Assembly (NCBI GenBank): GCA_951406725.2
Contig: OX597831.1
Span: forward strand, 61,504,001-61,568,000
Direction of reading: 5' to 3'
Length of the DNA: 64,000 nt
DNA from: Octopus vulgaris
Taxonomy: Eukaryota
In this document: in pieces, positions 45,890 through 56,916 of the stretch
Numbering within the stretch: position 1 is the stretch's first letter
Layout of the letters: each line of letters begins with the position of its first letter
Translations under genes and position numbers: made by a program
Notes under the pieces: generated by a model
Databases searched by the model: none
What the model was told of the DNA's origin: nothing
Seen by the model: only the letters and a program-made list of their open reading frames with translations

Positions 45890-46326
45890 TTCTAGATGTT
45901 TGTCTTCTGATTTCAAAATACCTCTTATCGCTGGCCACTGCAGGGCAAGAAGTTGATACTTTAAGATCTGGCTAATGATGATGGGTTTCCGATGTCAGAC
46001 AAAGCAACACATTGGTTACAGCAGCATCTTGATCACTTCTATAAATACAAAAGGATCTGGCAAAAAGCAGAACAAATAGTAGGTTGGACAAAGAAAATCA
46101 CAAGAGGGCACCAACTTAATGTCATAACATATGAGTTATTACAGAGCGACACACACACATAATATCATAGTGTAAACATAGTCACATAAAACTCTCATAA
46201 TTCATACATTATCACATAGAAAGTACATATCAAAATGTACACACTGTTACATTAGGGACACTCACATGTCATAATATTCACATTGGCTCTTAGGAAACAT
46301 ACACAGAATATCATAATGTTCATATT

Positions 46327-46744
46327 TATTTCTTTACTGCCCACAAGGGGCTAAACATAGAGGGGACAAACAAGGACAGACAAACGGATTAAGTCGATTA
46401 TGTCGACCCCAGTGCGAAACTGGTACTTTATTTATCGACCCCGAAAGGATGAAAGGCAAAGTCGACCTCGGCGGAATTTGAACTCAGAACGTAGCGGCAG
46501 ATGAAATACCTATTTCTTTAACTACCCACAAGGGGCTAAACATAGAGGGGACAAACAAGGACAGACAAAGGGATTAAGTCAATTACGTCGACCCCAGTGC
46601 AAAACTGGTACTTTATTTATCGACCCCGAAAGAATGAGAGGCAAAGTCGACCTCGGCAGAATTTGAACTCTGAACTAAATGGCAGACGAAATATCGCTAA
46701 GCATTTCGCCCGGCGCGCTAACGTTTCTGTCTGCTCGCCGCCTT
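46327..46744 (-). mobile_element. Family-A SINE (two units); 3' partner in the U2 chimera
   Basis: Near-consensus reverse copy. Confidence 0.92.
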
Positions 46745-46877
46745 TAGCCCCTAACACTTTGCCTTGTTCGAAAAATCAGTTTAATATCGATGGCCCCCAA
46801 ATAGGGACCGTATCAGATATTAAGCTGATAAGAACAGATACTACACTTTGGTCTTAGCCAAAGGGCCGAGAAGCGAT
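46745..46877 (-). pseudogene. U2: U2 snRNA retro-pseudogene (about nt 1-133)
   Basis: Minus strand ATCGCTTCTCGGCCCTTTGGCTAAGACCAAAGTGTAGTATCTGTTCTTATCAGCTTAATATCTGATACG, including branch-point recognition GTAGTA and an Sm-like ATTTTT; 3'-truncated. Confidence 0.95.
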
Positions 46878-46906
46878 ATAATGTACATGTTATCACATGA
46901 AGTGAC

Positions 46907-55168: not shown

Positions 55169-55406
55169 GAAACTGCATGGAAGTCCTTTCTATATATATA
55201 TATTTGTGTATGTTTGCATGTTTGTGTTATAATTACCAGTGTAAAAACATGTGCCAGGTTGCATCCTTTTATACCCAATTTTATGCTTGAAATTTTCTAA
55301 ATGGAAAATGCATGAAGGCATATTTACATACAAGCCTGATTGCATGTGGGACTGTTTACCACTGCAAAAGCATGTGTTGAGTTCTGTTCCTTTATATCTA
55401 AGAAGT

Positions 55407-55573
55407 CATCATCATCATCATCATCATCGTTTAGTGTCCGCTTTCCATGCTAGCATGGGTTGGACGGTTCAACTGGGGTCTGTGAAGCCAGAAGGCTGCA
55501 TCAGGCCCAGTCTGATCTGGCAGTGTTTCTACGGCTGGATGCCCTTCCTAATGCCAACCACTCCGTGAGTGTA
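55407..55573 (-). mobile_element. Short RTE 3'-end copy
   Basis: (CAT)n followed by tail-family consensus. Confidence 0.85.
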
Positions 55574-56066: not shown

Positions 56067-56274
56067 TCATCATCATCATCATCGTTTAACGTCTGCTTTC
56101 CATGCTAGCATGGGTTGGACGATTTGACTGAGGTCTGGCGAACTAGACTCTAATCTGATCTGGCAAAGTTTCTACAGCTGGATGCCCTTCCTAACGCCAA
56201 CCACTCTGAGAGTGTAGAGGGTGCTTTTATGTGCCACCGGCATGAGGGCCAGTTTGGTGGTACTGGCAACAGCC
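56067..56274 (-). mobile_element. RTE 3'-end copy; 3' partner in the U6 chimera
   Basis: (CAT)n plus tail consensus, abutting the U6 oligo-T. Confidence 0.87.
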
Positions 56275-56313
56275 AAAAAATATGGAACACTTCAGGAATT
56301 TGCATGTCATCCT
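56275..56313 (-). pseudogene. U6: U6 snRNA 3'-terminal fragment
   Basis: Minus strand AGGATGACAtGCAAATTCcTGAAGtGTTCCATATTTTTT versus U6 AGGATGACACGCAAATTCGTGAAGCGTTCCATATTTT; 3 mismatches, all at CpG sites. Confidence 0.9.
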
Positions 56314-56403
56314 AAGTGTAAATTATTATAGCTTTATGTTGCTGATGTGACAAATTTACATTATCTATATTGTTTATATTAGTCAGATTGGTGTCCTTAC
56401 CTT

Positions 56404-56916
56404 GATTGTTGCTCTCCCTACACTTCGGCTGTTGTATGCCTCAGTCATCTGCAGGTGTCTTGGGTTAAACTCAGTTGTTTTATCAGGATTTCACACCTAA
56501 CCCTTTATTTAATCTATGGTGGCAAACTGCTTTCACTCCATTCTCTGCATTTTGTGACAGTTTTGCTTCAGTTGATCTTTTGTGAATTATCTTAGTTCTT
56601 TGCCTAGGATTGAACTTAGAACCTCTAGATGACCGCACTGTCTTACCAAATGACTATCTTCTATGCTATGCCCATTGGTTAATGCAGTCACCTAGATGTT
56701 CTGAGTTCAATGCCAGGTAATGCACTTAGATAATTCACAAAAAAATCAACAGAAGCAAGAATGTCACAAAACGCAGAGAGCAGAATGAGAACAGTGTACT
56801 CTTGTGGATCAAATAAAAGGTTAGGTTTGAAATTCCAATACAACAACCAAGTTCGATAGAAGACGCCTGAAGAAGACTGGAGTGTAGAACAGCTGAAGCG
56901 TAGTGAAACCAACAAT
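56404..56916. mobile_element. Diverged inverted repeat (~230-bp arms), PLE-type inverted pLTRs with a decayed hammerhead motif
   Basis: 56404-56632 versus 56687-56916; CTGAAGA-A-GACTG..CAGCT-GAAG-CG-TA at 56867-56902. Confidence 0.6.

Follow-up and report, generated by a model that had tools for sequence, protein, structure and literature searches.

A 5′-truncated U6 snRNA fused to an RTE-type LINE tail in Octopus vulgaris, and a genome-wide set of chimeras that favours template jumping over RNA ligation

Introduction

How did the 3′ end of a U6 snRNA come to be joined, in the same sense, to the tail of a LINE in the genome of Octopus vulgaris? The question was raised by a locus on the minus strand of a 64,000-nucleotide stretch of contig OX597831.1 (assembly GCA_951406725.2, positions 61,504,001 to 61,568,000), referred to here as the window. 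U6 fusions to non-L1 elements, RTE included, are already known from Anolis, opossum and platypus. The passages of the vertebrate survey devoted to them (PMC4476161) name platypus U6/L2 and U6/Mon-1, Anolis U6/RTEX-2 and U6/AnolisSINE2, and opossum U6/RTE_Mdo; they describe three U6/RTE chimeras in Anolis, two 5′-truncated U6/RTE-type cases without a target-site duplication (TSD) in opossum, and 40 chimeras of U6 with L2 or Mon-1 in platypus, where U6 is mostly truncated. Recent work, in the portion that treats their origin, left open whether U6/LINE chimeras result from template switching by reverse transcriptase (RT) or from RNA ligation (PMC11838501). What the octopus genome adds is the scale of the phenomenon and the junction classes that favour template jumping. 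Our literature search found no cephalopod study of snRNA chimeras; recent O. vulgaris SINEs have been tabulated under the automated classes 'U' and 'U-L1' in a paper whose main text, as consulted, contains neither 'snRNA' nor 'chimer', and whose supplements, outside our search, may hold them (PMC13282606).

Results

Anatomy of the focal chimera

The U6 part matched the Rfam U6 model (RF00026) at model positions 68-105 over window positions 56276-56313 on the minus strand, with E = 4.7e-4 when 701 bases were scanned and a score under the Rfam gathering score, as expected for a fragment. Compared with a U6 gene of the same genome (L032), it corresponded to nt 70-107 and was identical at 35 of 38 positions. 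It lacked nt 1-69 and a U6 promoter, and the end of an unrelated repeat lay upstream; true U6 genes have promoter-like flanks in common. Six T residues (56280-56275) directly abutted the partner at 56274 with no extra letters, one T being common to the U6 tract and the partner's upstream sequence. The partner part measured 206 bp and closed with (GAT)5 at 56069; two letters of the adjoining target flank (56068-56067) carry the GAT repeat on. The same-sense fusion of a U6 3′ end to a LINE, as proposed in the first-pass annotation of the window, is thus a real retro-chimera, with limits at 56069-56313 in place of the 56067..56320 originally drawn (Table 1). The focal copy is probably a dead fossil without function. 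Only four loci genome-wide carried a focal-type junction pattern, and their U6 lengths and partner subfamilies differed.

Table 1. Features of the focal U6/RTE chimera and of the U2/SINE chimera in the same window
Feature	Window positions	Strand	Evidence
U6 snRNA retrocopy, 5′-truncated (nt 70-107), with its tract of six T at 56280-56275	56275..56313	-	Rfam U6 match; 35/38 identity to U6 gene L032
3′UTR end of an RTE-type LINE, 5′-truncated near the start of one ~55-60 nt UTR repeat unit	56084..56274	-	93.3% over 209 nt to L169; RVT_1 upstream in L169; full-length relatives are single APE+RT ORFs
(GAT)5 tail of the RTE-type LINE	56069..56083	-	Sequence; flank matches in contigs of two more distant organisms up to 56068
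U2 snRNA retrocopy, nt 1 to ~131, 3′-truncated	46746..46877	-	Rfam U2, 105.6 bits; alignment to own U2 gene
Full-length SINE (named tSINE_B here) with tandem 185-bp unit, 5′ end joined to the U2 piece	46326..46745	-	
Left TSD of the U2/SINE chimera	46878..46888	-	10/11 identical to right copy
Right TSD of the U2/SINE chimera	46313..46323	-	

The partner was traced with a 209-nt query that was 93.3% identical to the 3′ end of another copy, L169. Both L169 and a second copy, L165, ran upstream into a broken RT ORF (RVT_1, 48.5 bits, over the Pfam cut-off), and a PHD-like finger scored just below its cut-off. Three full-length relatives (P0003, P0004 and P0006), 33-48% identical to the C-terminal query, each consisted of a single ORF of 1041-1061 aa with PF03372 and PF00078 domains (APE endonuclease and RT), and the own-genome RTE copies examined were 5′-truncated ahead of the endonuclease. 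An RT protein of Octopus bimaculoides was 80% identical over 40% of a query from the partner family. The C-terminal motif pattern is one that we take to fit the RTE clade. The RTE identity given to the partner from the first was supported by its position behind the RVT_1 ORF in L169, and assignment to an RTE-clade LINE fits the ORF layout, the short-repeat tail and this motif. No RTE-2_OV sequence turned up in those supplements of PMC9115989 covered by our search (files 5-8 lay outside it).

Two further observations concern this family. At window ~55406-55570 on the minus strand, 500 bp from the focal chimera, lies another RTE tail, which is truncated further, belongs to a different subfamily (80% identical to L169) and has no snRNA attached. 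At L009-L012 (G000:C13:65.42-65.45 Mb) an RTE copy lies in a tandem array with a ~7.8 kb period.

Target site, flanks and age of the focal insertion

The focal locus showed no TSD: the best non-simple repeat around the whole chimera was only 5 nt long, in agreement with the failure of the first-pass annotation to find one. A TSD enclosing the RTE part alone, which would have spoken against a joint insertion, was not found either, the best candidate being an AT-rich 6-nt repeat that was not adjacent (3 nt off at both ends). The missing TSD says little, because among RTE 3′ ends of at least 86% identity a repeat of at least 8 nt accompanied only 1 of 29 copies (5 of 89 overall, mostly microsatellite, among the loci analysed).

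Contigs of other organisms were compared across the RTE part of the focal locus and into its 3′ flank. Those of two close organisms (~1% flank difference) continued into the GAT tail. Those of two more distant organisms (~9-10% different) matched the 3′ flank to 56068 and then left the RTE tail, going on for 88 and 91 letters that did not align to it. From this divergence at 56068, the RTE part was probably inserted between the splits of the close and the more distant organisms. A paralogous empty site was not found via the repeat in the 5′ flank, whose other copies continue into unrelated sequence.

This repeat is older and has two oppositely oriented ends in the window, at 56328-56500 and ~56790-56900, one of which, in the 5′ flank, stops ~14 nt before the focal U6 piece. 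Its copies are ~80% identical and often occur as inverted pairs, and it may be Penelope-like.

A genome-wide excess of U6 chimeras

We searched the genome (2.8 Gb, 227 contigs) with a 26-nt pattern from the U6 3′ end, which gave 448 matches at no more than one mismatch and none for the control. The loci examined comprised 100 listed pattern matches (exact, contigs 1-9), 48 Rfam matches and three loci reached through the focal query; nine same-place repeats were removed, leaving 128 loci, and nine genes and five segmental copies were set aside to give 114 non-genic copies. A locus was scored as a chimera when a same-strand element started within 15 nt of the T-tract. By this measure 88/114 copies were followed by a same-strand SINE or LINE tail (85/111 without the three focal-query loci), six of the classed chimeras having provided their own reference sequence. 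Control T-tracts had an element within 15 nt in 20/1200 cases and an RTE piece in 4/1200, and an antisense element beside the U6 T-tract was seen in 0/114. Adjacency of U6 and these elements, the check suggested by the first-pass annotation, therefore exceeds chance genome-wide. Inspection by eye of the 26 unclassified loci revealed 10 further chimeras, 11 copies that were palindromic or had gene flanks, and five others. Solo or poly(A)-tailed U6 pseudogenes were nearly missing from the sample.

At least three T residues were retained in 86/88 chimeras, in a sample selected for presence of the U6 3′ end. In its pattern-derived part, U6 started at nt 1-24 in 35/51 copies and at nt 58-74 in 16/51, the focal copy falling in the second group. 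The TSD test covered 83 chimeras, as five of the 88 lacked a located 3′ end. Repeats of at least 10 nt surrounded the whole chimera in 10/83, compared with 9/489 shuffled pairs (p = 8e-5); six were clean by eye, one of them the U6/RTE chimera L003. A partner-only TSD of at least 9 nt was found in 0/83.

Junction strings were distinct in 66 of 72 cases and three U6 gene variants were mixed across the partner families, so that the chimeras represent independent copies and not a U6-headed SINE. A propagating family with a SINEU-like master copy was ruled out by the same 66/72 figure, and the individual chimeras have the look of dead-end copies that lack a promoter and arose independently. Exact-pattern searches returned 24 joins of U6 to one LINE tail, tailA, against 7989 exact tailA copies; capture is hence rare per insertion, yet it is the main source of U6 copies. 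It is likely that the genome holds hundreds of such U6 chimeras.

Two other arrangements of U6 were seen. One U6/tail chimera occurs six times with its flanks at ~20-kb spacing (L086-L091, G000:C1:132.42-132.53 Mb), which is probably a tandem segmental duplication. Nine non-chimeric U6 copies (L049, L117, L121, L124, L132, L151, L154, L158 and L159) have an inverted U6 part directly upstream, and in these palindromes the inverted part mostly includes the gene's 3′ flank. They may have arisen in another way, conceivably by mobilisation of read-through U6 of the Penelope type.

Partner families and junction classes

The U6 partners belonged to at least eight families, comprising tRNA-like SINEs, four related short tails and RTE. 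The tRNA-like SINEs and CR1-type tails dominated; RTE was a minor partner (7/88 strict chimeras, three of them from the focal query). TailA comes from the 3′ end of a LINE that we assume to be of the CR1 type, its ORF giving an RVT_1 match of 104 bits. Among 30 tailA copies, 18 extended into the LINE, three were SINEs, seven were tail-only and two carried U6.

Junction positions in the partner, expected in the first-pass annotation to vary, turned out to be mostly fixed: the partner started at the SINE 5′ end in 35/88 chimeras and at the foot of the terminal stem-loop, as placed by folding, in 41/88. All 13 strict U6/tailA chimeras started at the stem-loop foot, versus 7/28 non-U6 copies. Tail-only copies were significantly enriched in chimeras for tailA (p = 4e-6) and not significantly for tailD (9/36 vs 1/21, p = 0.07). 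No enrichment of full-length SINEs was found in chimeras over standalone copies (23/36 vs 15/21; 11/12 vs 12/13), which makes the SINE junctions compatible with jumping without being enriched. For RTE, 5/8 U6 junctions lay within 3 nt of the same UTR-repeat motif (2/5 without the three focal-query loci). One to six extra letters were present at 19/22 CR1-type tail junctions with known partner context. T-tracts were about one T shorter before C than before A (4.5 vs 5.7, p = 2e-5), as would be expected if the added base had paired with the last U.

Serial chimeras were also detected: U6-U6(from nt 1)-LINE-type tail at L076 (G000:C2:23365674-23367777) and tRNA-Lys-U6(29-107)-U6(1-40) at L102 (G000:C1:187748743-187751768). 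Joins of U6 to nt 1 of a second U6 numbered only two genome-wide by exact pattern. Separately, the standalone tailA copies L180, L182, L183, L188, L190 and L206 (~1497-1560, oriented) start at the same three letters at the stem-loop foot, which suggests a preferred template end ~50 nt from the LINE 3′ end.

Chimeras of U2, U1 and U5

The U2 chimera mentioned in the first-pass annotation was confirmed, at a distance of 9 kb instead of about 10 kb, and its two parts proved to be enclosed together by an 11-nt TSD with one mismatch. We sampled 50 of 110 U2 pattern matches (the first 30 and 20 dispersed, hand-chosen ones), of which 27 were gene-like by flanks. The 23 non-genic copies included 15 chimeras by script and 18 by eye, with an antisense element in one. 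Two had an RTE partner (L266, and L223 by eye). Several U2 copies extended ~6-18 nt into the 3′ flank of the gene, which suggests that these 3′-extended copies derive from precursors. The proposed frequency of snRNA capture in this genome was upheld for U6 (85/111) and U2 (15/23). For U1, 40 of 42 Rfam matches were examined and 35 were gene-like by flanks; the dispersed copies were chimeric in 0/5 by script (own references) and 1/5 by eye, a weak result that tells against full generality. U5 gave 26 matches, 23 of them clustered on one contig, and two of the three dispersed copies were chimeric. Three U1 copies (L340, L343, L345) and one U2 copy (L270) carry ~19-20 nt of gene 3′ flank leading directly into (ATT)n, with no recognisable partner.

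Discussion

Starting from the observed anatomy of the focal copy, the identity of its partner, the same-strand fusion excess and the whole-chimera TSDs at other loci, we consider it probable that the 38-nt U6 piece, its six T residues and the 206-bp RTE 3′ end arose in one target-primed insertion with an end-to-end template jump. RT would have started target-primed copying on the RTE RNA, run to the 5′ terminus of that RNA, switched there to U6 at its free 3′ end and broken off soon afterwards, leaving a 5′-truncated U6. The join would thereby be made on the cDNA. Across the set, many templates would terminate either where a SINE natively begins or where the 5′ foot of a stem-loop lies; as RT would be expected to stall before a stem, not after it, junctions at this foot suggest that the RNA ended there. 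As the focal locus has no TSD, a one-event origin is inferred for it rather than shown, and the focal copy would have arisen by the same route as the other chimeras.

The genome-wide set favours template jumping over RtcB ligation on four grounds: starts at native SINE 5′ ends, U6-U6(nt 1) joins, 3′-extended U2 or tRNA in the 5′ position, and extra letters at 19/22 junctions. The focal junction alone fits either route. Both had been offered in the first-pass annotation; template switching, in the form of jumping, fits the set better, and RtcB ligation fits it poorly. As described for the human system, RtcB requires a cyclic-phosphate 3′ end and a 5′-OH partner, a 5′-triphosphate partner yielded 0/26 full-length products (PMC6789731), and human U6 bears a 5′ methyl-phosphate cap (PMC5855946). 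If octopus RNA ends are assumed to be a 5′ triphosphate on SINEs, a cap and a 3′ phosphate on U6, and a 3′-OH on U2 and tRNA, ligation would have difficulty in fusing an RNA to the native 5′ end of a SINE or to nt 1 of U6, and in placing U2, extended or not, or a tRNA in the 5′ position. It does not predict the extra letters either, although U6 can be adenylated, and letters consisting of A only could come from this source; moreover, RTE itself carries U2 in two cases. That RtcB joined mature U6 to a cleaved RTE RNA with a 5′-OH, and that the fused RNA was then retrotransposed, nevertheless has several results on its side. The route was demonstrated for human U6/L1. Several other RTE junctions, like the focal one, are clean joins of a T-tract to the LINE; the proximity of 5/8 U6/RTE junctions to one motif (only 2/5 on removal of the focal-query loci) and the 13/13 versus 7/28 at the tailA stem-loop foot are what a cleavage site would give. 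A point against jumping is the clean focal junction, six T at an internal LINE position: it is exactly the ligation-type product seen in human cells. On balance we regard ligation as unlikely to be the source of the focal copy.

End-joining is a less probable source of the junctions still. Extra letters, microhomologies and absent TSDs at LINE 5′ junctions are all compatible with it, and the extra letters, the microhomologies of 1-2 nt and the missing TSDs observed here fit. However, end-joining would not fix orientation (0/114 antisense) and would not always use the U6 3′ end (at least three T in 86/88, in a sample admittedly selected for that end). The idea of two insertions, in which an RTE fragment was added subsequently at the T-tract of a U6 pseudogene already in place, could draw on the lack of a TSD around the focal chimera, the 6-nt AT-rich word common to the U6 end and the 3′ flank, and the abundance of RTE tails, but is very improbable given RTE pieces near only 4/1200 control T-tracts, the 3-nt offset of that word at both ends, 0/83 partner-only TSDs and the near lack of solo or poly(A)-tailed U6 pseudogenes.

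Template jumping by the LINE RT, the reading preferred here, has precedents. R2 RT in vitro serially copies several templates end to end and adds 1-5 non-templated letters, as the relevant experiments report (PMC8594491); the demonstration concerns R2 and extends to RTE and CR1 enzymes by analogy only. In crocodilian SINEU, according to the account of their origin (PMC4494074), snRNA-derived sequence likewise sits on retroelement 5′ ends and was attributed to template switching. The SINEU described there are propagating families with master copies, whereas in octopus 66/72 junctions differ from one another and the partner elements abound without an snRNA head.

The octopus chimeras resemble those of the vertebrate survey, in the sections noted above (PMC4476161), in the same-sense joining of a U6 T-tract to a short LINE or SINE 3′ part, in frequent 5′ truncation of U6, in short or missing TSDs and in lacking a poly(A) U6 class; the opossum cases, with a 5′-truncated U6, RTE and no TSD, share the focal anatomy. 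They differ from those described there in occurring in an invertebrate, in numbering likely hundreds (448 pattern matches, with about three quarters of the sampled non-genic ones chimeric), and in having at least eight partner families, many full-length SINEs, and full-length and 3′-extended U2 in sense orientation; human U1 and U2 chimeras are inverted in that survey. With human U6/L1 chimeras, as far as characterised in PMC6789731 and PMC11838501, they share the sense-oriented junction between a U6 ending in 4-6 T and a 5′-truncated LINE, and the focal junction is equally clean. The same two sources describe human U6 as mostly full length, L1 junctions as dispersed and U6/Alu as rare; in octopus, by contrast, junctions cluster, SINE partners dominate and extra letters occur at most testable junctions.

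A broader reading is possible, though we hold it more tentatively than the one for the focal copy: in this genome, LINE RTs of several clades may as a matter of routine pass from the physical 5′ terminus of whatever template they copy to the free 3′ end of a nuclear RNA, among them the U2 precursor, making this, rather than RNA ligation, the general route to snRNA chimeras. The template left behind could be a SINE in its intact form, a U6 with its cap, or a ~50-nt fragment whose end lies where the foot of the 3′ recognition stem-loop is. If this were true, the copies would preserve, as fossils, both the 3′ processing of snRNAs and a short LINE tail RNA protected by RT. With likely hundreds of independent junctions, some of a kind that ligation should not make, the octopus genome offers a test of the generality of the ligation model. 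The addition of a small RNA to a LINE tail is, furthermore, the proposed origin of SINEs, and the same step is seen here.
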